From: Sedimentisphaerales bacterium | GTDB taxonomy: Bacteria; Planctomycetota; Phycisphaerae; Sedimentisphaerales; Anaerobacaceae | Assembly (NCBI GenBank): GCA_016931715.1 | Contig: JAFGEF010000107.1 | Coordinates: forward strand, 21,932 to 85,931 | Reading direction: 5' to 3' | DNA: 64,000 nt | In this document: positions 44,319 to 62,221 of the stretch, one piece after another | How positions within the stretch are numbered: position 1 is the first letter of the stretch | How the letters are laid out: every line of letters starts with the position of its first letter | Position numbers and translations under genes: made by a program | Notes under the pieces: model-generated | Database searches by the model: none | What the model was told of the DNA's origin: nothing | What the model saw: only the letters and a program-made list of their open reading frames with translations

Positions 44319-47300
44319 ATGAAAAATGTAAACATAATCCTAACAATAATTTTCATCATAATAATCTCCTTTACATATGCATCCCAGATAAGAGCAGATT
44401 ATCCAGTTATGTCGCAGCATTATGCCGCTGATCCTACGGCAATTGAATGGGACGGTCGATTATATGTTTATTGTTCCAATGACCAGGAAAACACTGAAAA
44501 TAGCGGCTATATCATGGATTCCATCGTTTGTTTCTCGACGGATGACCTTAAAAACTGGACTGACCACGGAATAGTTTTTGATGCGGATGATGTTTCATGG
44601 ATAGGGACCGCATGGGCCCCGTGTATCGTTCAAAACCATAACAAGCTATACCTTTATTTTGGAGATCCTTATTGGGGTATTGGTGTCGTAACGAGTACCT
44701 CCCCGACGGGTCCGTTTACTGCTCCAAAGAATGGTCTGGTAGTGAAACGCTCAACCCTCTCGGGAGGTACTTCTGGTGCAGATAGCACATGGCTCTTCGA
44801 TCCTGGTGTGTTAGTCGACGATAACGGCCAGCCATATCTCTTTTTCGGTGGAGGCGGATCCAATCAAGCCCGCTATGTATTGCTGGATACAAACATGTAT
44901 GATGCTATAAGTTCAGCTTATCCAATTAATTTCCCGGATTTCTTTGAAGCATCGCATATGCACAAATACAACGGAATTTATTATTATTCCTATGCTGACA
45001 ATTATGACAATAACTACAACAATCCAGCGCCGACACCTGGATCTCAAATCGCATACATGACAAGTTCCAATCCGACAGGCCCATTTGTGTATCAGGGCAT
45101 AGCCCTTGGGCCGCCACCTGATAATTATGGAAATAACAATCACCATACATTTTTTACCTTTCTGGGGCAATGGTATTGTGTGTACCATAATCGCTATCAA
45201 GCGGGGATTGACGGAGTTTCGACCACAGAGCATCGAAATATTTGTCTTGACAGGATGGAATATAATCCCGATGGAACAATCCAGCCTGTCGTTCCAACTA
45301 TCGATGGTCTAACACAATTAAAGTGTCTCGATCCCTGCATAAGAGTAGAAGCTGAAACAATCGCGCAGCAAAGCGGTATCAAAACCGAGACATGCTCGGA
45401 AGGTGGTATGAATGTAACCTCCATTGAAAATGGAGACTGGATACGACTGCGCGGTGTAGATTTTGGTACGGACGCGAATAGTTTTGGTGCTCGTGTTGCC
45501 AGTACTCATTTCAGCGGAAGCATAGAACTGCGGCTGGACAGCCTAAATGGAACCGTGATAGGAACTTGCTTTGTTCCAAATACCGGGGATGCTCAAACAT
45601 GGACTACGGCGTATTGCTCTATATACGAAGCATCTGGTATTCATGATCTTTATCTGAAATTCAAGGGTGATCAGGACAAGAATCTGTTCAATATAAACTG
45701 GTGGCAGTTCGATATAAAATATGACGATGATGTGATTATAGAAACTCTTCCCGATCCAATCCATCTCTATAGCTTTAATGAACAAGGCGGAAATCGGATT
45801 TATGACTCATTCGGTTCGGCTGATGGATGGGTAATTAATGGAGGTGTGTTGAATAATGGAATCCTGAATCTTTCCAAGTCGTTGAGCCAATATGTGGATC
45901 TACCGGATGGACTCGTAAGTTCACTAACTGATTGTACAATTGCCGCCTGGATCAAACTTAACTCTGTCGATAATTGGGTACGCATTTTTGACTTCGGCTC
46001 CGGAACAGGAGTAAATATGTTCCTTACTCCGACTTACTGGGGAAATGCACTTCGTTTTGGGATAAAAAACGATGGCACAGAGCAGAACATCAATTCAACC
46101 CAGGGTCCATTGACGACAGGTTTGTGGACGCATGTCGCAGTCACCCTGCAGGGAAATACCGGTGCTCTCTATGTCAATGGCGTAAAGGCTGGACAGAGTA
46201 ATTCTATAACATGGAATCCAGGTGATCTTGGTGATACGACGCAGAATTGGCTGGGACGTTCGCAATGGAACGATCCTTATCTCGATGGTCAGTTCGACGA
46301 GTTCCGAATTTACGATGTTGCCTTTTCTGCGAATGAGGCCGCATGGCTTTTTGAAGGCGGAGAACCACGTGAATTTGTTTCAGGAACAACGGTCGAGAAG
46401 GTTGAGATCAACGCATCCGAAACTCACCAGACTATCGAAGGTTTGGGCGGAGCGATATGTTTTTATAACGGGTGGTTTACAGCACATCCCTGCAAGCAGG
46501 AAATTTTTGACTATGCTTTTAGCGGTTTAAATCTTTCGATGCTGCGGATTGGTAACTGGTGGCGCGGTGTTAATGGTCAGGATACTGCAATCTATGAAAT
46601 AGCTGAAGCTGCTAATCAAAGATTGGGGCATCCTGTGCCGATTCTGATAAGTTCGTGGTCACCGCCAGCATATTTGAAGAGTAATGGTGAAGTAGGTAAT
46701 GGAGGAACCCTAATCAAAAAAGATGGAGTTTATGATTACACAGGATTTGCCGACTACTGGTACGATTCGATTCAGGACTATATTGCACATGGTATTACTC
46801 CTGCATGGATCGGCATACAGAATGAACCGGACTGGACCGCTCCTTATGATTCGTGCAGGTTTAATCCAAGTGAAGCCCAATGGGACGGACAAAATTACGC
46901 AAGCTTTGCTCTGGCACTTGATGCAGTTCACCAGAAACTGGAAGATGGTATGGCTTCGCCGCCAAAACTGCTTGGACCTGAAAATGTAGGCGTCGGCTAT
47001 AATTGCCTTCAGGATTTTATGGCGGAAATGAACACTGACAGTTTTTACGGGATTGCGCACCACCTCTATAACGGCAGTATCGACAGCAGTCCAGACGGAT
47101 ACAACATGGCTTTTAATGATGTATTGAACACGACAAAAAATCTGTTTCCGGGCAAACCGAGATTCATGACCGAATACGGAGATATTGATGGATTGATACC
47201 GTGCGCGAATTTGATTCACAACTCCCTCGTTGTCGAGCAGGTCAGCGGATACAACCACTGGAGTTTGATTTGGCCCAAAAATAGAAATGATCCAAATGAT

Positions 47301-48635
47301 AATCCCTCCAACGGAAATACGTCACTGGTTGAGATCGAGTTTCCATGGGATTCAAGTGATTGGATAAGTCCAAAGGGCTACTGGATCAACCCGTCTTATT
47401 GGTCGATGAAGCATTATTCTTATTTCATAGAGCCAGAATATAAACGAGTAACGACCCAATCCAGCAATTACGACCTCATGACATCAGCCTTCATTTCGCC
47501 TGACCATAACAGGCTGGTTACTGTGATAATCAATAGAAGCACAGAGTCCCCCGCCATAGTGACATTGGATGTCAATTCTTTTGACTATGATTACTCTCGC
47601 ATCTATCAGAGCATGGGCGATAATCATTTCGAATCACTTGGCAATCTTCACAATTTACAGGTCACTGTACCGGTATCATCAATAACTACAATTGTTCTGG
47701 ATAAAGAAGTGGAGGTCGGGCAGGCCGGCAATCCTACACCTGCTGACTGCGAAACAGGGCAACCCAAAAATGTGACATTGACATGGACACCCGGAACCAG
47801 CGCAACAAGTCATGCGATCTATTTAGGGACGGATTGTAACGCAGTAGCAACTGCAACACCGGAATCGCCGGAATATCAGGGTACAGTTCCAACATCGAGT
47901 TTTATGCCAGAGTCACTTTCTTCCAGTACGACTTATTACTGGTCAGTAGATGAGATAGCCTATTCGAGTATTTGTCCGGGCCAGGTTTGGTCGTTCAGTA
48001 CCGCGCCAGCCGTGTTACATGCTCATCTTAAGTTTGATGAAAAACGCGGCACCGGAGTCTCCGATTCCACAGGCAACGGCTGGAATGGTACGCTTGTTAA
48101 CGGTGGTCTATGGACATCCGGCAAGTCTGGCAATGCGGCAGATTTGGATGGCAGCAATGACTATGTAAGTCTGCCTGCCGGTGTGGTCGATGGCTTGACC
48201 AATTATACGATTTCCTCATGGGTGCACCTTGATACAGTCAGTACATGGTCCCGAGTGTTTGATTTCGGAAGCGGAACTACAAAAAGCATGTATTTAACCC
48301 CGCAGTGTGGTGGGTCGAATACAGTGCGCTTTGCCATCACTACAGGCGGCTCCAGCGGAGAACAGCAAATAAATGGCACTGCCGCGATTCCGTCTGGTGT
48401 CTGGACTCACGTGGCCGTGACATATCAAGCTGGTACTGGTATTCTTTATATTGATGGAATTGAAGTTGGCCGCAACAATAATATATCCCTTACTCCTTCT
48501 TCGCTCGGCCGCACAATGCAAAACTACATCGGCAAGTCCCAATGGCCTGATCCATATCTCAATGGGCGTGTGGATGATTTCCGCATATACTCCGATGTGC
48601 TGAGCGCTTCTGAAGTAGCTGCATTAGCCAAATAA
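44319..48635 (+). CDS. secreted multidomain glycoside hydrolase: GH43, CBM6, LamG, a clan GH-A (GH30-like) barrel, an FN3-like module and LamG
   Basis: A strong RBS (GAGGAG) lies 7 nt upstream and the signal peptide is MKNVNIILTIIFIIIISFTYASQIRA. GH43 motifs are ADPTAIEWDGRLYVY, WAPCIV and FEASHMHKY. The CBM6-like part runs IRVEAETIAQQSG...WWQF. The two LamG modules are (I/V)FDFGSG...WTHVAVT...DEFRIY and DDFRIY. The clan GH-A catalytic motifs are IQNEPD and FMTEYG. Confidence 0.85.
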   Translation: MKNVNIILTIIFIIIISFTYASQIRADYPVMSQHYAADPTAIEWDGRLYVYCSNDQENTENSGYIMDSIVCFSTDDLKNWTDHGIVFDADDVSWIGTAWAPCIVQNHNKLYLYFGDPYWGIGVVTSTSPTGPFTAPKNGLVVKRSTLSGGTSGADSTWLFDPGVLVDDNGQPYLFFGGGGSNQARYVLLDTNMYDAISSAYPINFPDFFEASHMHKYNGIYYYSYADNYDNNYNNPAPTPGSQIAYMTSSNPTGPFVYQGIALGPPPDNYGNNNHHTFFTFLGQWYCVYHNRYQAGIDGVSTTEHRNICLDRMEYNPDGTIQPVVPTIDGLTQLKCLDPCIRVEAETIAQQSGIKTETCSEGGMNVTSIENGDWIRLRGVDFGTDANSFGARVASTHFSGSIELRLDSLNGTVIGTCFVPNTGDAQTWTTAYCSIYEASGIHDLYLKFKGDQDKNLFNINWWQFDIKYDDDVIIETLPDPIHLYSFNEQGGNRIYDSFGSADGWVINGGVLNNGILNLSKSLSQYVDLPDGLVSSLTDCTIAAWIKLNSVDNWVRIFDFGSGTGVNMFLTPTYWGNALRFGIKNDGTEQNINSTQGPLTTGLWTHVAVTLQGNTGALYVNGVKAGQSNSITWNPGDLGDTTQNWLGRSQWNDPYLDGQFDEFRIYDVAFSANEAAWLFEGGEPREFVSGTTVEKVEINASETHQTIEGLGGAICFYNGWFTAHPCKQEIFDYAFSGLNLSMLRIGNWWRGVNGQDTAIYEIAEAANQRLGHPVPILISSWSPPAYLKSNGEVGNGGTLIKKDGVYDYTGFADYWYDSIQDYIAHGITPAWIGIQNEPDWTAPYDSCRFNPSEAQWDGQNYASFALALDAVHQKLEDGMASPPKLLGPENVGVGYNCLQDFMAEMNTDSFYGIAHHLYNGSIDSSPDGYNMAFNDVLNTTKNLFPGKPRFMTEYGDIDGLIPCANLIHNSLVVEQVSGYNHWSLIWPKNRNDPNDNPSNGNTSLVEIEFPWDSSDWISPKGYWINPSYWSMKHYSYFIEPEYKRVTTQSSNYDLMTSAFISPDHNRLVTVIINRSTESPAIVTLDVNSFDYDYSRIYQSMGDNHFESLGNLHNLQVTVPVSSITTIVLDKEVEVGQAGNPTPADCETGQPKNVTLTWTPGTSATSHAIYLGTDCNAVATATPESPEYQGTVPTSSFMPESLSSSTTYYWSVDEIAYSSICPGQVWSFSTAPAVLHAHLKFDEKRGTGVSDSTGNGWNGTLVNGGLWTSGKSGNAADLDGSNDYVSLPAGVVDGLTNYTISSWVHLDTVSTWSRVFDFGSGTTKSMYLTPQCGGSNTVRFAITTGGSSGEQQINGTAAIPSGVWTHVAVTYQAGTGILYIDGIEVGRNNNISLTPSSLGRTMQNYIGKSQWPDPYLNGRVDDFRIYSDVLSASEVAALAK

Positions 48636-52543: not shown

Positions 52544-54328
52544 ATGGAACCGGAAAAACTAAAACCATACAAATCGTTTTTATTTTGTACGATTGCAGAT
52601 ATTCCTGTCACAACAGTAAGTGATGATATTGAGGAACTGGTAAAAGGAAAAGAAGGTACTGTTCTTTCAAGAAATAATCTTGAACCAGAAGGTTTGGAAA
52701 TATCATTATTTACTTATATTGATAAAATAACACCTCCTTGGAGTAATGATGAATCTGTAAAAGATATTATTAATGAATTAGTAGTAGTAGTTAAAAAGAA
52801 TAAATATATTGCTATTTATTCTTCAAATACATCTATTCGAGATACTATCAGAAGTTTTATATCTGGCACAAAGAAGAAAAAAGAAAATAAATTTACTTAT
52901 CTAAAACTTATTCCGCGCGGTTTACTAAACGCTGCTTTTATTAAAGGACAAACTCAAACATTATGGCTGTCAGGAACACATAGACGAACCGCTTCAAAGG
53001 TGGATAATAAAATTATCAACGGTCTTGATTTGCGATACGCTTTAGATCCGTTGGGTGATCAGTCATTTTTCTTTACTGCCGCAAGATGCAAGCTCCCGAC
53101 TAATATATTTAAAAATCTTATTGGTATATCGCCCAGAAAAAGTTCTCTATGGGCGGGTTTTTCTAAACAATGGGATGATTTTATTGTTAGTACAAAATTA
53201 CTATTAAACCTTTTAGAAGATACCAAAAAGCCTAATCAGAATCCATTACCAATATTAGCTGAAAGTATTAATGGATTAAATGACTTAGAAAATATTGGTA
53301 AATGTTATGATGCTGCAATTATTCCCCCCATATTGCTTGCAGAAACAGATATAGACTCTAATGATCGAAAAGATGCTGAAATGTGGAATGAATTGCATTT
53401 TGAAATAGTTTCGACTGAAAGCTCATTGAATTTTAAGGCGGAAGTTTCGTTATTTGAAATTGATAAGTTAAATAACATCGGAACATTTTCATTTACGTTT
53501 GATGATTTGACTATGTTACCACAGGTTGAATACAAAATTGAAGGTGAAGCAGCATCATCGGAGAATCAAGAAATTTTTAACAAAGCTCTTAATATGTTAC
53601 AAACTAATAAGAATTGGCTAAAAGTATGGTATGATTCAGGACATGTCATTGCAGAAAGAGAAATCTTTTTGCACCGGTTTCGTGATATGCCTTTTATGCA
53701 TTTTGAAGGACAAGCTTTAATTAATATCTCTATTAAAAATGAAAAGCCGCCTTATCCGATCGAGGATAATATTGGAAAGCATAAGTCACTTTTTTGTTAT
53801 GTTAAGAATACACTAACGAAAGGTTGGTTGACTTGTGATGATGGATCAATGGAAATGGCTGATTTTATTCATTTTAATAAAATCACGGATAAACCAACAA
53901 TCTCTCTCATTCATGTAAAGGCTTCCAAAAAAAATGAACCAAAACGTAATATGGCGGTATCTGATTATGAAATAGTTGTTAGCCAGGCAATTAAGAATAT
54001 TCGATATTTGAGCACAGATAATTTATTGGAAGGCTTAACAGCCGGGTTGAAAAAGAAGATACAAAATGCTACATGGAAGGATGGGAAAAAGCAGAGTAAT
54101 GGACGCAAAGGGATGCTAAAAGAAATTGAAAAATGTGGAACCAACATTTCTTATAAAGTTATTGTTTTTCAACCGCGTGCTCGTATTTCAGAAATTGAAA
54201 AGACCAGAGTAAATAAGAAGGGAAAATCATATAAGATTTTGCAACAACTTGATACTTTATTATTGGGAGCCAGTCATGATTGTCAATCTGCAGGAGCAGA
54301 ATTTATAGCTTGGATAGATGGTAGTTGA
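52544..54328 (+). CDS. 594-aa hypothetical protein with a C-terminal endonuclease-fold-like motif
   Basis: AGGA lies 7 nt upstream of the ATG. About 420 aa at the N-terminus have no recognisable family. The C-terminus reads CDDGSMEMADFIHFNKITDKPTISLIHVKASKK...VSDYEIVVSQAIKNIRYL and is reminiscent of sporadically distributed TIGR04141/DUF6119-type proteins (tentative). Confidence 0.55.
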   Translation: MEPEKLKPYKSFLFCTIADIPVTTVSDDIEELVKGKEGTVLSRNNLEPEGLEISLFTYIDKITPPWSNDESVKDIINELVVVVKKNKYIAIYSSNTSIRDTIRSFISGTKKKKENKFTYLKLIPRGLLNAAFIKGQTQTLWLSGTHRRTASKVDNKIINGLDLRYALDPLGDQSFFFTAARCKLPTNIFKNLIGISPRKSSLWAGFSKQWDDFIVSTKLLLNLLEDTKKPNQNPLPILAESINGLNDLENIGKCYDAAIIPPILLAETDIDSNDRKDAEMWNELHFEIVSTESSLNFKAEVSLFEIDKLNNIGTFSFTFDDLTMLPQVEYKIEGEAASSENQEIFNKALNMLQTNKNWLKVWYDSGHVIAEREIFLHRFRDMPFMHFEGQALINISIKNEKPPYPIEDNIGKHKSLFCYVKNTLTKGWLTCDDGSMEMADFIHFNKITDKPTISLIHVKASKKNEPKRNMAVSDYEIVVSQAIKNIRYLSTDNLLEGLTAGLKKKIQNATWKDGKKQSNGRKGMLKEIEKCGTNISYKVIVFQPRARISEIEKTRVNKKGKSYKILQQLDTLLLGASHDCQSAGAEFIAWIDGS

Positions 54329-54340
54329 GTTAGGATTTGT

Positions 54341-55066
54341 ATGGGAAAGCAACGATTATTAGTAAGTATTAGAGGTAAAAAGGAAGCTTTAGCAGCAATA
54401 AAAGGTGGTGCTCAAATTGCTGATGTCGAATTTCCGGCTTCGGCCTTAGGGACACCGTATCCGTTAAATATTCGAGTAGTTAGAAATGCTATGCCCAAGC
54501 ATATCAAAGTTGCAACCAATATCGGCGAGGAACAGTCTGGTCGTTCAAGTGCATGTCAGGCAGCTTTAGGTGTGGCGTTGGCGGGGGCAGATATTGTCAA
54601 ATTAGGCCTTGCTAAAATGTCTCTTGGTGAAGCAAAAGAGTTCGGGCCGGCACTCGTTAGAACGGTCAAGAAATGGTTTCCGCGAAAGCAATGTATTCCA
54701 GCATTATTTGCTGATGAACGTCTGGCCAATTGGTATATTGACCCTATAAAACAAGGACCTGAATTAGCAGAACTTATGAAAGCAGATGGATTATTGGTGG
54801 ATACTTTTGATAAATCACTTGGAAAAGGTCTGATGGATTATTATACAATTGGTGATATCAGAAAATTTGTAAAGAAATGCCATGATAGGAATATTGAGGC
54901 ATGGTTGGCAGGAAGTATTGGTAAAGATGAACTTCCTGATTTGTGGGAAGCTGGGGTTGATGTTGTTTGTGTTCGTGGTGCTGCTTGTAAGTCGGGTACA
55001 GGACCGGGAAGATTTGGAGAAGTTGATACAAAACTTGTGAAAGAACTAATTAGTACTATTCCATGA
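54341..55066 (+). CDS. MfnB/DUF556-like class I aldolase TIM-barrel ((5-formylfuran-3-yl)methyl phosphate synthase family)
   Basis: Supporting blocks are LLVSIRGKKEALAAIKGGAQIADVEFPASALGTPYP, GADIVKLGL, LLVDTFDKSLGKGL, EAWLAGSIG and VDVVCVRGAAC. Their order and spacing match the family pattern. Confidence 0.6.
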   Translation: MGKQRLLVSIRGKKEALAAIKGGAQIADVEFPASALGTPYPLNIRVVRNAMPKHIKVATNIGEEQSGRSSACQAALGVALAGADIVKLGLAKMSLGEAKEFGPALVRTVKKWFPRKQCIPALFADERLANWYIDPIKQGPELAELMKADGLLVDTFDKSLGKGLMDYYTIGDIRKFVKKCHDRNIEAWLAGSIGKDELPDLWEAGVDVVCVRGAACKSGTGPGRFGEVDTKLVKELISTIP

Positions 55067-55890
55067 CAGCTGAAGAAAAGAACCAGAATAAAGGATATTT
55101 GAATGGTGCTCGAGTTTATCTTTCGGGTCCCATGGATTTTGTTGCTTCTCGCGAAGAAGAAAAAAAGAATGGATGGCGGATTCGTGTAAAACAATTCCTC
55201 CAGTCCTACGGAGCAATAGTTTTTGATCCATGGGAAAAGCCTAAAGTTCGTGGCCTTCATGAATATGGCAAAGAAGGTGTTGTTTCAATCAATGTACGCG
55301 AGAATTGGACATTTGAAGAAAGTAGAAAGGGTGCTGAAATACGTTCTGAATGTGCTCAAAAATTTTATGAAACCATGCATATAGATTTAAGAATGGTTGA
55401 TATAAGCGATTTTGTAATTGCATATTGCCCGACAAATATATATAGCGTTGGTACTCCTCATGAAATAATCACTGCAAGAAACCAGCAAAAGCCGGTTTTA
55501 TTTATTAGTACTCCGGTTGTATTTCCTGCTTTGGAGAATTTGAAAACTCATCTTAATAGCTCTGGAGATAAAGCTGGTTTGCAGTTATTAAACGAATTAG
55601 AAAATCAGGTTCCAATTAAACAAAATCCCAAAGGGATACCAAGTTTATGGTATATGCCTTTGATTGGAAGTAACAACTTTTTTGATAGTTTTGGTTTTTC
55701 TAAATATGCTGAAAAATATAAATGGTCTAAGTCTCCTTCAGATGATCTTGAACAGCATAATCCACCAAAGCGACCATTATTAGATTTTCTCAGGCAATTA
55801 AACATGAAGCTTCCACAAAAATGGAATATAAATAAAAATAAAATTGAAAAAGATGATGACTGGCTCTTGCTTGATATAAAGCAGGTATGA
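55063..55890 (+). CDS. nucleoside 2-deoxyribosyltransferase-like (NDT/LOG/DNPH1-superfamily) protein with a C-terminal extension of about 110 aa
   Basis: Supporting blocks are ARVYLSGPMDF, VFDPW and DLRMVDISDFVIAYCPTNIYSVGTPHEIITARNQQKPVLFIS. Together these give the YxxGP start, the acidic D, and the GTxxE(I/L)xxA...KPV pattern. The start is an ATGA overlap with the preceding gene. Confidence 0.55.
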   Translation: MTAEEKNQNKGYLNGARVYLSGPMDFVASREEEKKNGWRIRVKQFLQSYGAIVFDPWEKPKVRGLHEYGKEGVVSINVRENWTFEESRKGAEIRSECAQKFYETMHIDLRMVDISDFVIAYCPTNIYSVGTPHEIITARNQQKPVLFISTPVVFPALENLKTHLNSSGDKAGLQLLNELENQVPIKQNPKGIPSLWYMPLIGSNNFFDSFGFSKYAEKYKWSKSPSDDLEQHNPPKRPLLDFLRQLNMKLPQKWNINKNKIEKDDDWLLLDIKQV

Positions 55891-55915: not shown

Positions 55916-57928
55916 CTATACAGATTTTTCCACAATTTCTTCTGATAAAGTATAATTATAATACTGAAGACCTGTTTCAGATTCCTCTATAGTATCAGCA
56001 TTACCAACCGATGCAGACAAAGGTTTATCACACTTTATTATAGCAATATCAATATGACACTTATAGTTCTGGCAAGTATTATTACGCATAGATAATAAGT
56101 CATATAGATTGGAAGAATTTTCTTTAAATGTATTATTAAAATCAAAAATAAGATATAAACCAACTGTAGGCCTACCTTCAATCTTATCTTTTAGCATGTG
56201 TTGAACTAATTCTTTATCAATCCCTTGTTTCCAGTTACCGGAATCTTTCTTAAGCTCTATCCATAACTTATTTGGTTGTCGCTCAATGAGATAGTCACAT
56301 TGACCAAGTCCGCTATCTCCCTTTGGAGTTAATATTGCTCCTCGTTTACGAACATAGTGATCAAGTTGAAGTCTCATAAGAGCATCAATATTTTTTTCCT
56401 TGACAGGAATATTTTTCTCATACCAAAGTGCATTCCAAAAACCACCGAGGCGAATATCTTTTACCAAAGTTTTAAGAAAATCATGAATTCCTTCGAGAAG
56501 ACCTTTATTTCCTTTTTCAAAAGGTGCATCAATACTCTGTTGTGTTATTATAACTGTCTGAGTAGTATTCGTTACTTCATATAGGTGACTGCTAATGAGC
56601 GGCTCTAATCCCGATCTTTCAGGTAATTGTTTTATTCTTTCCATTAAATCATCGTGCATATTAACAATCTGGAATACTATTCCAGCATCTTTACTATGTT
56701 TATCACGTTTTTCTTCGTATCTCCACCCTCGCAATGCTTGGGCTCTACAACAAAATCGGCATCCATCCTTGCTATCAACAAGGGTCAGGTTAACAAAATT
56801 TATTACCCGCTTATGTTCCTGATTACGAAGTTTTATAGTAACTAGCTCATTCTTAAATCCTGTGCAATCTTCTATATAATCATCCCATTTGATATGGACA
56901 CCATTACCTTGGATAGCAAAATCAACAACAGTTCCATATAAATCTACTGTATTTTCTTCATACACACAATTGATTATGGCATTCCATCCGTTACCATTTC
57001 TTCGAAGTGGCCGAGGATCTCTTCCGCATAAACAAGGGATTAATTCAGATAAAGGACTTTGAAGTAAACGTCTTGTATCGATCATATCTCTATGTAATGC
57101 ATTTAAAATCTTATAAGCATCTTCGAAATATGATGAAATTAAAGATGGACGATTACAACTTAATCTATCTATGCCTGTCCTTTGTATGAGATTTGGTAAT
57201 TTTGATAAAACTCTTCGAACGTCGTATGTTTCCTGTTGTAGAGCTATTTCGGGATTACGTCTTACTGCAATATCAATCAGCTTTATTGTCTCAAGGATAT
57301 AGCGTGGCACTAATTCTTTTTTTACAGAGAGGATAGACTCGAGGATTTCTGACAGAAATACACTTGCTGATTTATTAACAGTCTCCGTATTGTCCGGTGA
57401 GAGGAGTGTCCCAATCCTTGAAACATATCCCGTAACAGCTCTCCCGAAATGTTCGGTTTCATTATAGAGACCTTCAAGACGAAGAAGTCTAAGGTAGCTT
57501 GGTAGGATCTTTTCATTAACATATTGTAAATCCGATATCCAACCTTCTAATACTTTTTGTGGATTGAGAATGCGGTTGTAATTTGGATTTTTTTGGGCCA
57601 ATACTTCCTCACCTCCAAGTCCATATTTCCATGTATCAAAAAGAATGGGGAATATCTTTTCGCACAATTCCTCTGCTTCGGGTATAAATGCTAATGATTT
57701 CATTATTTGTATAGCCCTTGCGCAAAATAAAGGACAATCTGGCCATTTAGCTTTATCCGTTAGTTCTTGAGCTTTATTGATAATACGAGCCTTCACACTT
57801 GATGTGAGTTTGCCTCCATGCAGAATGTATTCAATCTCTTCTAACATATTATGTCCTATTGTATTAACACAGGTGTGATTAAACCATTCGCTATGTGTAT
57901 CAATTGGTGTATTTTGTTTTCCTAACAT
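55916..57928 (-). CDS. 670-aa hypothetical protein: helical N-domain, PilZ-like barrel signature and PD-(D/E)xK-like C-terminal domain
   Basis: GGAG lies 9 nt upstream of ATG 57928. R306-P-L-R-R310 and D336-F-A-I-Q-G341 match the PilZ motifs. D545...E558-L-K560 (CDYLIERQPNKLWIELKK) matches a nuclease core. No family is assigned with certainty. Confidence 0.55.
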   Translation of the reverse strand: MLGKQNTPIDTHSEWFNHTCVNTIGHNMLEEIEYILHGGKLTSSVKARIINKAQELTDKAKWPDCPLFCARAIQIMKSLAFIPEAEELCEKIFPILFDTWKYGLGGEEVLAQKNPNYNRILNPQKVLEGWISDLQYVNEKILPSYLRLLRLEGLYNETEHFGRAVTGYVSRIGTLLSPDNTETVNKSASVFLSEILESILSVKKELVPRYILETIKLIDIAVRRNPEIALQQETYDVRRVLSKLPNLIQRTGIDRLSCNRPSLISSYFEDAYKILNALHRDMIDTRRLLQSPLSELIPCLCGRDPRPLRRNGNGWNAIINCVYEENTVDLYGTVVDFAIQGNGVHIKWDDYIEDCTGFKNELVTIKLRNQEHKRVINFVNLTLVDSKDGCRFCCRAQALRGWRYEEKRDKHSKDAGIVFQIVNMHDDLMERIKQLPERSGLEPLISSHLYEVTNTTQTVIITQQSIDAPFEKGNKGLLEGIHDFLKTLVKDIRLGGFWNALWYEKNIPVKEKNIDALMRLQLDHYVRKRGAILTPKGDSGLGQCDYLIERQPNKLWIELKKDSGNWKQGIDKELVQHMLKDKIEGRPTVGLYLIFDFNNTFKENSSNLYDLLSMRNNTCQNYKCHIDIAIIKCDKPLSASVGNADTIEESETGLQYYNYTLSEEIVEKSV

Positions 57929-58017: not shown

Positions 58018-58989
58018 TCATTTGTTACTAATTGTTAGTTTTCTATTCACAATAAAGGTATTATTTGAAAGTTTTGGAGGATGATCTCGGAAACACAATT
58101 CAAGGTAAAAATCACTACTTGGTTTTCCATAAAACCAAAGCATCTCTTTAGCCAATTTTCTATCACTATGACGAACTGGAATGATACAGATACTTCCATC
58201 CATAACCTCGACAGGAGTTCCAAGAGTTTGAAATAGAACTATGTCGTATGCTTCTGGCGCTATATGAGCTTTATTTGGTTGGATATGAGTATAAAATAAT
58301 TCTTTTGCCTCTCTTGTAGCATATACAGTGTCAAAAGTTGCAATTTCATTAAGTAAACGAGTATAGCTGGACACAGATAACCATGGTTGTTGCCCAATAA
58401 GATAATCATAAGTTGCACCGTCAAATTTAAGATTAAGAACAAACATATCCTTTGCTTTCGGAGCTAATGGAGGTAGAAGAAAAGATGTAAATGAAGGTTC
58501 CTTACCTCTATGATTTTCAGGTTTTAAGTCTATCTTATGTTGTTCATTCATAAAGCAACCTTCTGGACCCGCTATTGAATATTCGATTGGTTGTTGAGCT
58601 ATAGACAGACAATTTACTCTTGGATAAAATAGAATCGATTTATCATCATTTGTATTTTGAATGATTCGGTCAGAATACAAACGATTTAGAAGATTCAAAG
58701 CTTCATTTTCAGTCTCAAAATCAAATGGTTCCAGCCATCCTTGCACATCTCCACGGTGGACTACGCGAGCACGCATCGGAATCGTATAAGGATTTTCAAG
58801 AAACAGAATTAAGGTGATATATACTTCTCTATCTTCGTTTTTAAATACCAATCCTTCAGTCACTTGTCGTGCTATCAATGAGGGACATGTTGGCCATTCA
58901 GAAGTGAGGACAATGCAGTCAGATCCACAATTGCAACTGTACTTTTTATGATTGGTGGTATTTAAGTGAGTATTATTTTTTTGATTCAT
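58018..58989 (-). CDS. 323-aa hypothetical protein (Cys-rich N-terminus), upstream partner of the 670-aa gene
   Basis: GGAG lies 10 nt upstream of ATG 58989. The N-terminus is YSCNCGSDCIVLTSEWPTCPS. The gap to the next gene on the same strand is 89 nt. No family is recognised. Confidence 0.5.
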   Translation of the reverse strand: MNQKNNTHLNTTNHKKYSCNCGSDCIVLTSEWPTCPSLIARQVTEGLVFKNEDREVYITLILFLENPYTIPMRARVVHRGDVQGWLEPFDFETENEALNLLNRLYSDRIIQNTNDDKSILFYPRVNCLSIAQQPIEYSIAGPEGCFMNEQHKIDLKPENHRGKEPSFTSFLLPPLAPKAKDMFVLNLKFDGATYDYLIGQQPWLSVSSYTRLLNEIATFDTVYATREAKELFYTHIQPNKAHIAPEAYDIVLFQTLGTPVEVMDGSICIIPVRHSDRKLAKEMLWFYGKPSSDFYLELCFRDHPPKLSNNTFIVNRKLTISNK

Positions 58990-59520
58990 AAATATAACTC
59001 CAAAAATAACATTTAATATAATATAAATACAGATTATTTGGACCCATCTGAAGCAAGTTAAAATTATTGCGGTAGTCTATGTATTTATGGTTTAAGAGGG
59101 AATTAGAATTTAACACAATTAGTTGTTCAGATGATATATTAAGAATTCTGAAAGTAAAATGGCGATAGAATTTCAGCGAAACCAAGGATAGTAGAGGTGA
59201 AAAAAAATTAATGATTCCACAATGAGTATTCTTCATTCTCTGTCCTTGTATTTTTACTTTTCTTTTTTAAAACAGACAATAATGCTAATCTAATCCTACA
59301 TCGATTAGCTATCTACAAAAATAAATCTTTTCCGAATATTACATTGTAATACAATTATGTAAGATTTGTCAATTGTGGTAACTACGTATTTTAATACGAA
59401 AAATATTTGTTTTTGAGCTAAAAACAAGCATTAGTAGAAATTTATTATTCTTCTTAGAAAAAGCATATGAAAATATAGTCCGAATCCTTTTTATATGGCG
59501 TTAGGGTATTTTTTTGATTT

Positions 59521-59980: not shown

Positions 59981-62221
59981 TTATATTCCGTATGCCAGGC
60001 GTTGTTTTTTCTGGTATTTCCGGTATGATTTATACTGCTGTTTAAAATAGCCGCCTGTTCTTGCTCTTGCCGCAAAAAGGACACAGCCGACTATGCTTGA
60101 GCTTGCGCCTTTTATTTCGCGTATTGTTCTCTGGGCAGCGCCGGTATTGGTATCATCTGCACAGAAGACCAGCAGCGTCGCATCCGCAAGCGAGGCTAAA
60201 ACTGTAGAATCGCTTACGAGAAGTACCGGAGCGCCGTCGATTATGATATGGTCATAATTCCTTCGCAATTCTCTGACAAGCTCATCCATTCTTATGCTTC
60301 CGAGCAGGTCGGAAGGATTAGCCGGCATCGGGCCGCAATCGATTATGCTGAGTCCCTCGATGCCGCTTGATCTGATGGCATTCTCTGTCTTGCACTGGTG
60401 CATCAGAACGCTGCTCAGGCCGAAATTGAAATGCTGCGATTCAAGGCTTTCGAGACTTTGTCCTTCTACTCTCGGGAAAATTACATGCAGATTTGGATTC
60501 CTGAAATTAGCGTCAATGAGCAGAACTTTTTTGCCTGAAGCTACGAAGACAAGCGCAAGATTGACTGCGGTTGAAGTTTTTCCCTCGCCGCTCATTCCGC
60601 TCGCAACGAGAATTGTCTTTAGTGACTCAAGCGGGCCTGAGAGCATGAGATTTGCCCTTAATCGGCGATAAGATTCACTTATCATCGAATAAGGGGCCTG
60701 CCTGACAATCTGACGAAGCTCGACGCCGCGAGAAAGTTTTTCTTCGGACACATCAGGAATGACCGACAGAAGAGGAATTCGCAGGAATCTCGAAACCTCG
60801 CTCGGGGTAGCTATCTGGTCATTTGTAAGCTCACCCATAAATGCAAGCGATATACCGAGTAAAAGGCCCAGCATTGTTAATGTAGGCAGCCACATATACC
60901 ACTGTCGTGATAAAATCATTTCCAGAGGCGCCGGAGCCGGACCAACAGATTGAATCTTCGGAATTTCCGGGTCGTTAAGCAGTGATGTCACTTTCTCGAT
61001 TTGCTCATCGATTTTTTTGAGCATATCCAGTCTCTCATCACGTATCTTCAGTTGTTTGTCAAATTCGATGCGTGCGGTATCAAGATCCGTTTTCTTTTTC
61101 TGGGCTTCAGCACGAAGATCGCTGAGCTTATCGTATCTTTCCTGCAGGATGTACAAGCCATCTCTTGCGTTTTCAAGATTTGCCAGACGTGTCTGATTGG
61201 CTATCTCTTCCTTTCTTAAATCCCGCTGTTTAAGAGTCTGCGCTACCATCTCCCTGACATGAATAACATCCCTGTGGCCTTCTCCGAACCTGGTTCTAAG
61301 AGCGGATAACTGAGTCTGCTGTTCAGTCAACTGCTGAGCAAGCGAAAGCATAATCGGGTCTTTTTCAACCAATATTTCGATTTGCTCGTTAATAGGACCA
61401 TCCGCCAGCTCCTGAAGATTTTTAATATCAGCTTTTAATTGCTCCAAACCCATATCGAGGTTAATTTGCTCAAGCTCTATGCTTTCGAGAATTTGAGTAA
61501 CGGTATGGCGAAAATTGCGGGTCTCCGGCATCTCAAGATCCAATATGCCGGCTTTGTTTCGTATTGCCGATAATCCATCATTTGCATTATCCAGGTCTTT
61601 TTGAATGGACTTTCGCTGGTCATTGAGCGGCTTCAGCTTTTGTGTGACTTCTTCTTTTTCGACACCCATTTGCTTGGCAAGAAATAGTTCCACCATTTTA
61701 TTGACTATAACCGCGGACTCCTCGGCATTACCGGCTGTCATCGATAACTCGACAAAATCGCTGTCTCTTTGCGGAAAAGCAACGAAGGAATTTTTTAAAG
61801 ACCGTACTAATTTGACAATGTCACTGTCTTTGTCCTGGTACCATTTAGTCTTTCTTATCGTATCATTGTCCAAAAGATATTCCAACATGCTTTGCTGCTT
61901 GATTAAATTTGCGATAGACCTGCGATGTGCGTAAAGGATATCCTTTTGCGGCTGCACGCCTCCAATCACCCATGGATCGGATGGCGTCGGAGAAAGAATC
62001 TTGATATATGTAGTTGCATTATATTTCGGGTAATATTTCTGTAAAACCTTCCAAACCCCGAAACCTGCGATAAAACCAAATACTGTCAGGATAAATATCA
62101 GGAATATATGACGCCGCAAAATCCCACAAACCTCCCTGGCAGTCAGTGAGGCAGAATCCTGTGACCTCATACCCGCCGGCACAGACATTCTGTTGGATAT
62201 TAGTGGGCTTTTCTCAACCAT
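59981..62221 (-). CDS. polysaccharide co-polymerase / tyrosine autokinase (Wzc/GumC/EpsG-like)
   Basis: The N-terminal TM is IFLIFILTVFGFIAGFGV, followed by a long coiled-coil periplasmic region and a second TM (WLPTLTMLGLLLGISLAF). The P-loop is SGMSGEGKTSTAVNLA, with VLLIDANFRNP and IIIDGAPVL. The tail YFKQQYKSYRKYQ is Tyr-rich. Confidence 0.8.
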   Translation of the reverse strand: MVEKSPLISNRMSVPAGMRSQDSASLTAREVCGILRRHIFLIFILTVFGFIAGFGVWKVLQKYYPKYNATTYIKILSPTPSDPWVIGGVQPQKDILYAHRRSIANLIKQQSMLEYLLDNDTIRKTKWYQDKDSDIVKLVRSLKNSFVAFPQRDSDFVELSMTAGNAEESAVIVNKMVELFLAKQMGVEKEEVTQKLKPLNDQRKSIQKDLDNANDGLSAIRNKAGILDLEMPETRNFRHTVTQILESIELEQINLDMGLEQLKADIKNLQELADGPINEQIEILVEKDPIMLSLAQQLTEQQTQLSALRTRFGEGHRDVIHVREMVAQTLKQRDLRKEEIANQTRLANLENARDGLYILQERYDKLSDLRAEAQKKKTDLDTARIEFDKQLKIRDERLDMLKKIDEQIEKVTSLLNDPEIPKIQSVGPAPAPLEMILSRQWYMWLPTLTMLGLLLGISLAFMGELTNDQIATPSEVSRFLRIPLLSVIPDVSEEKLSRGVELRQIVRQAPYSMISESYRRLRANLMLSGPLESLKTILVASGMSGEGKTSTAVNLALVFVASGKKVLLIDANFRNPNLHVIFPRVEGQSLESLESQHFNFGLSSVLMHQCKTENAIRSSGIEGLSIIDCGPMPANPSDLLGSIRMDELVRELRRNYDHIIIDGAPVLLVSDSTVLASLADATLLVFCADDTNTGAAQRTIREIKGASSSIVGCVLFAARARTGGYFKQQYKSYRKYQKKQRLAYGI

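Follow-up and report, generated by a model that had tools for sequence, protein, structure and literature searches.

Known bacterial signal-gated immune effectors sense their signals via CARF, SAVED, STING, SLOG, TIR-type or small barrel domains. The PilZ domain, a receptor for c-di-GMP (cyclic dimeric guanosine monophosphate), carries an RxxxR motif in an N-terminal helix or loop before strand 1 and a DxSxxG motif at the loop-turn between strands 2 and 3 (PMC3131395). Both arginines of the first motif and the second motif have been described as c-di-GMP-binding elements (PMC8461298, PMC3131395), and in Alg44 a third arginine outside both motifs, R95, is required for dimeric c-di-GMP binding (PMC8461298). 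Here we describe a gene in a 64,000-nucleotide stretch of a Sedimentisphaerales bacterium genome (GenBank assembly GCA_016931715.1, contig JAFGEF010000107.1, positions 21,932 to 85,931; hereafter the window). The gene (the main gene) encodes a 670-aa protein, in which a helical domain is followed by a barrel with a PilZ-like predicted fold and a putative PD-(D/E)xK nuclease tail, and it lies in a low-GC block together with other defence-type genes. All positions below are those of the window, unless another locus is named.

The predicted PilZ-like barrel and its conserved residues

The domain order of the main protein is an all-alpha domain (residues 11-301), the barrel (303-435), a disordered linker and the nuclease-type tail (~470-640). 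The barrel region (residues 298-442) was aligned with 29 relatives (alignment A3, 30 sequences, mean identity 34%) and modelled alone with AlphaFold, giving ten strands and a closing helix with a predicted local distance difference test score (pLDDT) of 92.5 and a predicted template modelling score (pTM) of 0.86. When this domain model was compared with the PDB by Foldseek, PilZ domains made up 13 of the top 16 matches, including YcgR (5y6g, E 5e-3, template modelling (TM) score 0.52 on the target), MotI (5vx6), a Pseudomonas aeruginosa protein (4xrn, TM 0.57), Alg44 (4rt1), PP4397 (3kyf), four MrkH entries, CeSA (4i86) and BcsA (4p00/4hg6), with VCA0042 at ranks 23 and 35. Foldseek probabilities were 0.9-1.0 for the PilZ matches and mostly <0.5 for the others; the TM scores of the PilZ matches (0.52-0.57) are normalised to single-domain targets. 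An earlier full-length model from a separate, shallower alignment of 5 sequences showed an all-beta region at residues 309-421 followed by a helix at 426-433 (pLDDT ~67-89), with the C-terminal third poorly modelled; it matched BcsA at Foldseek ranks 4, 6 and 21, amid helical-repeat proteins. The barrel thus has a PilZ-like fold in the predicted structures, as the initial annotation had proposed from two short motifs.

Those motifs, RPLRR (residues 306-310) and DFAIQG (residues 336-341), are where they had been placed, with 25 residues between them, and the interval 56624-57022 corresponds to residues 303-435. In 2.5% of shuffles of the 670-aa protein, an RxxxR had a [DN]x[SA]xxG 15-35 residues downstream; because a single protein yields the pattern at this rate, roughly one chance pair would be expected among the proteins of the window, and the motifs alone would be weak evidence. 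The pair is more than chance, because the barrel model is confident, its best structural matches are PilZ domains, and R306 and D336 are invariant in all 30 sequences.

The domain model places R306 in coil and R309-N311 in a short strand ahead of the first long strand (315-323). Strand 2 (326-338) is ended by D336-A338, and is followed by a turn (I339-N342) and strand 3 (G343-W348). Both motifs therefore occupy PilZ's own topological positions (PMC3131395), and the order and spacing that had been read from the sequence hold in the model. The aspartate follows the arginines by 26-30 residues here and by 27-31 residues in E. coli YcgR (sequence taken from the genome). Because model positions and spacing agree with the published description (PMC3131395) and with YcgR, the motifs are well placed on a PilZ-type barrel.

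Conservation across the 30 barrels is complete only at R306, R309, D336 and R400. Position 310 is arginine (14 members), lysine (4), leucine (9), histidine (2) or glutamine (1), and position 338, the S/A site, is cysteine (16), serine (5), threonine (4), aspartate (3), alanine (1) or glycine (1). Downstream of D336, G341 is G in 23 members, G343 is G in 24, and H345 is H in 23 and Q in 5. A further motif, A-x-x-L-R-G-W-x-Y-E (residues 396-405), is conserved as strongly as the two PilZ-like motifs; within it G401 is kept in 28 members and Y404 in 26, and position 402 is tryptophan in 23 and phenylalanine in 5. The resulting family signature, RxxR[RKL] ... GxVxD[LFIV][CST]xxGxGxH ... RGWxYE, reads as a variant of the PilZ signature and not as the PilZ signature itself.

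We hypothesized that the 670-aa protein works as a nuclease gated by a ligand, within a defence module not described before, a reading we put forward tentatively and with slightly less than even confidence. The protein would act as the effector of a very rare module carried on defence islands; its barrel would bind a small, phosphate-bearing, nucleotide-like ligand, and occupancy would switch the nuclease on or off. A binding site is suggested because an invariant arginine cluster (R306, R309 and often R310) and D336 stand at the places where PilZ domains contact c-di-GMP, with R400 in addition. Candidate ligands would be a guanine nucleotide such as c-di-GMP, or the product of two enzymes encoded next to the main gene in part of the family (see below).

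Several observations weigh against this hypothesis. The Foldseek matches have E values of 5e-3 to 0.2, none of them <=1e-3, with TM scores of ~0.45-0.57 and root-mean-square deviations of 5-6 Å. With about ten strands the barrel exceeds the six-stranded core of PilZ; where the initial annotation had suggested looking for a six-stranded barrel, the model gave a PilZ-like barrel with a closing helix and more strands. Models of the Pfam PilZ (PF07238) clan did not match the full protein at E<=1, nor four homologues and two sub-fragments of the window protein at E<=10, and Pfam PilZ matched none of 61 family members at E<=0.01, so that the expected profile match appeared in no relative scanned. 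A profile of the barrel retrieved no PilZ chain among the PDB sequences, and hhalign against a small profile of YcgR, MrkH and PP4397 gave 8% probability in the wrong register. The canonical second arginine is kept as R or K in 18 of 30 members, S/A at the serine site in 6 and G341 in 23, and PilZ domains with incomplete motifs fail to bind c-di-GMP, for example XCC6012 (PMC3131395). Finally, 7 of 13 family loci lack the enzyme pair mentioned above and any other nearby candidate signal-making gene.

Membership of the barrel in the sequence family Pfam PilZ accordingly fails at the profile level. The PilZ profile used with hhalign was narrow, its YcgR relatives being close enterobacterial sequences to which MrkH and PP4397 were added; with the E. 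coli K-12 YcgR sequence in its place, hhalign aligned nothing to the barrel profile. PilZ domains scarcely detect one another (YcgR against PP4397 or MrkH, E 0.16-0.3), and their mutual identity is just 13-19% (PMC3131395). Since they detect one another so poorly, the failure of the profiles weakens membership in Pfam PilZ more than it weakens the claim of a PilZ fold. The barrel profile also matched Cu/Zn superoxide dismutase at E 0.4-1.9, which was judged to be chance. The resemblance is limited to a strand-turn-strand unit, with residues 318-360 (profile positions 21-62) against the strand pair G-x-V-x-G-L-x-x-G-x-H-G-F-H-V-H.

The conservation of the motifs bears on a more specific proposal, that the barrel is a true c-di-GMP receptor and that the cell's c-di-GMP pool controls the nuclease, for instance as a guard against depletion or sequestration of the nucleotide by phage. 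The best structural matches are c-di-GMP-bound PilZ domains, both motifs of the 670-aa protein fit the loose consensus, and the invariant aspartate stands at the leading D/N position. Such a receptor would require no dedicated synthase, which suits the seven loci without extra enzymes, and immune signalling through loss of an inhibitory nucleotide reportedly has a precedent (PMC12657230). The family as a whole departs from what c-di-GMP binding would call for, as a leucine stands at position 310 in 9 of 30 members, cysteine predominates at the serine site, Pfam PilZ gives no match, and the invariant spacing is R-x-x-R and not R-x-x-x-R. We regard this proposal as decidedly unlikely. The variants at positions 310 and 338 showed no link, by eye in the alignment, with the presence of the enzyme pair.

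The nuclease-type tail, the partner and the family

The assignment of the tail to the PD-(D/E)xK nucleases is supported at the level of motifs. In an alignment of 22 C-terminal domains, P508, E511, G542, D545, E558 and K560 were invariant; the core that had been read from the window protein (D545, E558, K560) is thus in place, and E511 joins it. Pfam matches of the 22 tails fell below threshold (best E 0.0025), with PDDEXK_3 in six and PDDEXK_9 in three, and further sub-threshold but coherent matches were to Mrr_cat, SfsA, Cas4, SduA_C, NERD and NucS_C; no tail among the 22 exceeded a curated threshold with any profile. Among the PDB sequences Cas4 (4r5q, E 0.76) matched best, its D and ExK aligning with D545 and E558-K560, and the tail matched phrog_30194 at 1.3e-6. 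In the model built from the 5-sequence alignment, the C-terminal 230 residues had a pLDDT below 50-65.

The tail is not constant in the family. Residues 1 to ~470 are kept across the five closest members, and the C-termini diverge. One relative (P0004) carries a PNP_UDP_1 phosphorylase/nucleosidase domain instead of the nuclease, and others have C-termini without a Pfam match and retain the N-terminal domains. Because the first two domains are kept while the nuclease is replaced, the N-terminal two-thirds would have the regulatory role and the C-terminus would be a killing domain that can be exchanged. At another locus (L014), a PtuB-like HNH protein, recognised by Septu PtuB models at 9e-16, begins within the 3' end of the main gene and may be an additional or alternative effector.

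The N-terminal all-alpha domain comprises 14 helices (pLDDT ~76-94 in the full-length AlphaFold model) and is kept in every full-length relative. Foldseek matches of the full-length model were mostly helical-repeat proteins, those of the helical domain being of a generic TPR/ARM type; a viral structure library yielded a single nameless 114-aa protein with the same fold and otherwise nothing useful. W15, C20, C65, P66 and C69 are invariant among the five closest relatives. Residues 15-70 contain conserved W-F-x-x-T-C-x-N-T and C-P-x-x-C-A motifs, which might form a metal site.

The 670-aa protein is identical to JW787_12750, a protein of a Sedimentisphaerales bacterium metagenome-assembled genome (MAG). 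Its precomputed Pfam label is PF28130 (DUF8371), which is carried by members with the nuclease tail and is missing from P0004 and P0005, both without the tail; for this reason PF28130 probably describes the C-terminal part of the protein. Searches with the 670-aa protein against Pfam, NCBIfam, PADLOC and PHROG gave nothing informative except phrog_30194 on the tail, and phmmer with the whole protein against the PDB sequences gave no match.

The family is small. A word-indexed search found just four relatives, all from Planctomycetota/Phycisphaerae or metagenomes, and an exhaustive profile search of 1.84 billion proteins found 58 cluster representatives, 45 of them below 1e-10. The members looked up are 'hypothetical' or nameless metagenomic proteins, and the named genomes with the main protein are so far Planctomycetota/Phycisphaerae only. 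The sole match in a scan of one genome per species was a Phycisphaerae MAG already found, and plasmid and viral collections held no relative of the main protein or of either enzyme of the pair. One locus (L001) has a second main-gene copy (P0002, 846 aa) with ~150 extra N-terminal residues; it is preceded by unrelated 231-aa and 457-aa proteins and not by the partner described next, and UvrD_C fragments border both copies.

A 323-aa orphan protein is encoded 89 nt upstream of the main gene, and a homologue of ~330 aa is present in 13 of 13 distinct loci. In most loci this partner is upstream of the main gene; L015 has it downstream, and in L016 an IS4 element lies between the two genes. It matched nothing in Pfam, NCBIfam, PADLOC, PHROG or the PDB sequences, and inspection revealed no nucleotidyltransferase-type motif. 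The possibility that it is a relative of the main protein was rejected by profile comparison. The promoter-like site upstream of the partner (Table 1) is weak evidence, as such sites are no more numerous in the region than in shuffled controls. In one lineage (P0018, 996 aa, in L010) the partner forms the C-terminal part of a fusion with the main protein (profile match ~680-985, E 1e-72), and this fusion predicts a direct physical interaction of the two proteins. Because they are fused in one lineage, the obligatory partner would act with the main protein, in sensing or regulation.

The constancy of the partner also fits a different role for the barrel, in which a PilZ fold without a small-molecule ligand serves as a structural or protein-contact module, such as a docking site for the partner or a hinge between the helical and nuclease domains. 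We consider this rather unlikely, although it is a serious contender. It is consistent with the incomplete canonical motifs across the family and the missing PilZ profile match, with the partner being obligatory and once fused, with most loci having no recognisable signal synthase, and with PilZ-fold proteins that have partial motifs, do not bind c-di-GMP and work via partners (PMC3131395). It accounts poorly for the barrel's invariant residues being only three arginines and an aspartate, with two of these sites at PilZ ligand-contact positions; an R/R/D/R set of this kind is what a phosphate- or base-binding pocket typically shows, and is unusual at a protein interface. We retain a ligand-gated nuclease as the tentative reading in what follows.

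Neighbouring genes and candidate signals

The initial annotation had paired the barrel, as a receptor, with a nearby cGAS/DncV-like nucleotidyltransferase (CD-NTase). The cyclase is genuine (Table 1), and its gene overlaps by 22 nt that of a full-length NucC. The two form a complete, self-contained two-gene cyclic-oligonucleotide-based antiphage signalling system (CBASS), with no HORMA/TRIP13 or Cap2/Cap3 genes adjoining them. Because the effector is NucC, the product of the cyclase is probably a cyclic trinucleotide.

Under the proposed pairing, the main protein would be a CBASS effector with PilZ replacing SAVED or STING, and the barrel a receptor for the product of this cyclase. The cyclase lies only 4.1 kb from the main gene, in the same low-GC island. 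The main gene, however, is on the opposite strand with three genes between, the cyclase already has its own receptor-nuclease in NucC, and 0 of 12 other family loci have a cyclase (their Pfam listings show no SMODS or NTase adjoining the main gene). What the window has in common with these 12 loci is limited to the main gene and the partner, joined in five loci by the enzyme pair. The nearby CBASS cyclase and the main protein are thus unlinked, and the pairing, largely refuted by gene context, is highly improbable. The ligand that we propose would accordingly be something other than the product of this cyclase.

A different candidate source is the pair of enzymes encoded beside the main gene. 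The first is a 241-aa MfnB-like protein of the class I aldolase type, and the second a 275-aa nucleoside 2-deoxyribosyltransferase (NDT)-like protein whose gene is convergent with the main gene across a 25-nt gap. The MfnB-like protein scored 136 bits, far below the 341 set as cut-off for the NCBIfam equivalog; on this score it is not an orthologue of the methanofuran MfnB, and it probably does different chemistry. MfnB itself has a TIM barrel of the class I aldolase type, with an active site similar to that of deoxyribose-5-phosphate aldolase (PMC6604932). The NDT-like proteins occur in a long (~272 aa) and a short (157 aa) form. We take them to have kept the S-x-G-x-x-x-E catalytic motif of the NDT/DNPH1 family.

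Of the 13 loci, 6 have the enzyme pair beside the main gene, and four gene arrangements occur among them (Table 1). Between the window and L010, the MfnB-like proteins are 88% and the NDT-like proteins 74% identical, whereas the main proteins are just 30% identical, and by this comparison the modules recombine.

Table 1. Positions of the main gene, its domains and motifs, the neighbouring genes and features of related loci
Feature	Coordinates	Strand	Basis or remark
Main gene, 670-aa protein (helical domain, predicted PilZ-like barrel, putative PD-(D/E)xK nuclease)	55916..57928	(-)	open reading frame (ORF)
N-terminal all-alpha domain, residues 11-301	57026..57898	(-)	full-length model
Predicted PilZ-like beta-barrel and closing helix, residues 303-435	56624..57022	(-)	domain model, Foldseek
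RPLRR, residues 306-310, coil directly before first long strand	56999..57013	(-)	sequence, domain model
DFAIQG, residues 336-341, end of strand 2 and strand 2-3 turn	56906..56923	(-)	sequence, domain model
ALRGWRYE, residues 398-405, family-specific, outside the PilZ signature, in long strand 390-407	56714..56737	(-)	
Putative PD-(D/E)xK-type nuclease domain, residues ~470-640	56009..56521	(-)	conservation, sub-threshold profile matches
Partner, 323-aa orphan protein	58018..58989	(-)	conserved neighbour
Promoter-like TTGACA-18-TACAAT upstream of partner	59343..59372	(-)	11/12 consensus positions
NDT-like protein, 275 aa	55063..55890	(+)	Pfam Nuc_deoxyrib_tr 3.4e-4, below cut-off
MfnB-like protein, 241 aa	54341..55066	(+)	Pfam PF04476 (4HFCP_synth) 1.5e-40
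594-aa protein	52544..54328	(+)	weak PADLOC PDC-S71 match, 8e-13, residues 397-493
NucC, 246 aa	51753-52493	(+)	PADLOC PDLC00745 2.5e-88, full length
CD-NTase, 255 aa	51007-51774	(+)	PADLOC Cyclase PDLC00803 1e-85, full length; SMODS 2.5e-9
FRG-domain ORF, 107 aa	50589-50912	(+)	N-terminal part of PADLOC PDC-S15 models only
GH43/CBM6/laminin-G gene, island flank	44319-48635		
Wzz/tyrosine-kinase exopolysaccharide chain-length genes, island flank	59981-62221		
Enzyme pair, window	54341-55890	(+)	594-aa - MfnB - NDT, convergent with main - partner
Enzyme pair, L010	6289-7829		DUF6119 - MfnB - NDT - main
Enzyme pair, L012	10323-11533		partner - main - NDT - MfnB
Enzyme pair, L015	4946-6550		DUF6119 - MfnB - NDT - main
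Enzyme pair, L017	2705-4467		partner - main, then MfnB and NDT divergent
Enzyme pair, L018	10145-11360		partner - main - NDT - MfnB
Main-partner fusion P0018, L010	8001-10991		profile match
Region of the second main-gene copy P0002, L001	7946-12541		
PtuB-like HNH protein, L014	10486-11118		Septu PtuB models

In the most far-reaching version of the ligand-gated nuclease, the MfnB-like and NDT-like enzymes would make a new immune signal, and the PilZ-like barrel would be its receptor, switching on the nuclease or nucleosidase. The signal would then be a furan-phosphate, a sugar-phosphate or a base-exchanged nucleotide, and not a cyclic oligonucleotide. We judge this version quite unlikely.

The recurrence of the enzyme pair could also point to a restriction-like system, in which the two enzymes modify a nucleotide or DNA base, and the nuclease and partner discriminate DNA by the mark. 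The barrel would in that case bind nucleic acid or a modified base and not a second messenger. It is enzymes of an N-glycosyl-transferase/hydrolase type and an aldolase type that recur beside a PD-(D/E)xK nuclease, the latter type shares its fold and active site with deoxyribose-5-phosphate aldolase (PMC6604932), and an arginine-rich surface could equally touch the DNA backbone. Both enzymes are, however, missing from 7 of 13 loci, no DNA-modifying enzyme such as a methyltransferase or transglycosylase was seen, and the nucleosidase-type replacement in P0004 suits an abortive-infection effector better than a restriction enzyme. We hold such a system to be very unlikely.

The 594-aa gene ends 13 nt upstream of the MfnB-like gene, in a slot that is filled by DUF6119 in L010 and L015. 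The DUF6119 proteins of these two loci are 54% identical to each other. The 594-aa protein was considered as a diverged DUF6119 and rejected, with no similarity detectable by BLASTP; whether it belongs to the module is uncertain.

The main gene lies in a low-GC block of ~9.5 kb (~50.0-59.5 kb), with 33-37% G+C against 40-46% on either side. This block holds all the defence-type genes of the window, namely the CBASS, an FRG fragment and the protein with the PDC-S71 match. It is flanked by a GH43/CBM6/laminin-G gene and by exopolysaccharide chain-length genes, and no tRNA or integrase was seen in 40-64 kb. The FRG fragment is a 107-aa ORF that matches only the N-terminal part of the PDC-S15 models (254-422 positions), and is probably a truncated remnant at the island edge.

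Other family loci contain integrase fragments (L015), insertion sequence elements and a HEPN/NTase pair (L016), a WYL-WCX regulator (L010), a PtuB-like HNH protein (L014), UvrD_C fragments (L001) and ParB_N (L004). Because of these locus contents, the swapped effector domains and the patchy, rare distribution, the module of the main gene fits a role in immunity.

Comparison with known receptors and effectors

A search of the full-text literature found no PilZ-fold sensor on a defence-island nuclease; it covered subscription papers poorly, and an earlier description is possible. In the same literature DUF8371 was unmentioned, MfnB was unlinked to phage defence, DUF6119 appeared in an unrelated paper only, and PilZ turned up beside anti-phage effectors in unrelated senses only. 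What we propose is a regulated effector nuclease with an unusual sensor fold, with a realistic chance of more, as yet unproven. If the barrel binds a ligand, then either a c-di-GMP receptor fold has been recruited to immunity, linking housekeeping second messengers to phage defence, or the barrel reads a new molecule from enzymes not previously tied to immunity. Were the enzymes to make the signal, bacterial immunity would gain a new signalling chemistry as well as a new sensor fold. The family is very small, and its compact set of two to five genes makes these proposals directly testable.

The tail of the main protein resembles the Cas4, PDDEXK_3 and Mrr nucleases in its invariant E...D...ExK, and in its weak profile matches the catalytic residues fall in register. 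It differs from them in that all of its matches lie below family thresholds and its fold is modelled at low confidence.

In its overall design, a regulatory domain joined to a putative DNA-cutting domain, with a swappable effector and carriage on defence islands, the protein is similar to effectors of CBASS and of type III clustered regularly interspaced short palindromic repeats (CRISPR) systems, such as NucC and the SAVED- and CARF-fused nucleases. Unlike these, it has a predicted PilZ-like sensor and not SAVED, CARF or STING, no linked CD-NTase or Cas10, and an obligatory orphan partner of ~330 aa, and ligand binding is here a proposal.

The incomplete motifs recall the non-canonical PilZ proteins XCC6012 and the PilZ protein of the FimX complex, which have the PilZ fold, are 13-19% identical to canonical PilZ domains and act via protein partners (PMC3131395). 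These proteins lack the arginines and the aspartate, whereas in the present family R306, R309 and D336 are invariant.

The closest comparison is with the PilZ c-di-GMP receptors YcgR, BcsA, Alg44, MrkH, PP4397 and VCA0042. Like these, the predicted barrel is closed by a C-terminal helix, with the arginine motif in the loop before strand 1 and an Asp-led motif at the strand 2-3 turn at a similar spacing. R400, further along, is a third conserved arginine that can be likened, by sequence position, to R95 of Alg44 (PMC8461298). The family departs from these receptors in giving no PilZ profile match, in having an invariant RxxR with a variable fifth position and mostly cysteine at the serine position, and in its extra strands (~10 in all) and its own RGWxYE motif. 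Its proposed output also differs, being a nuclease on a defence island and not the control of motility or exopolysaccharide.

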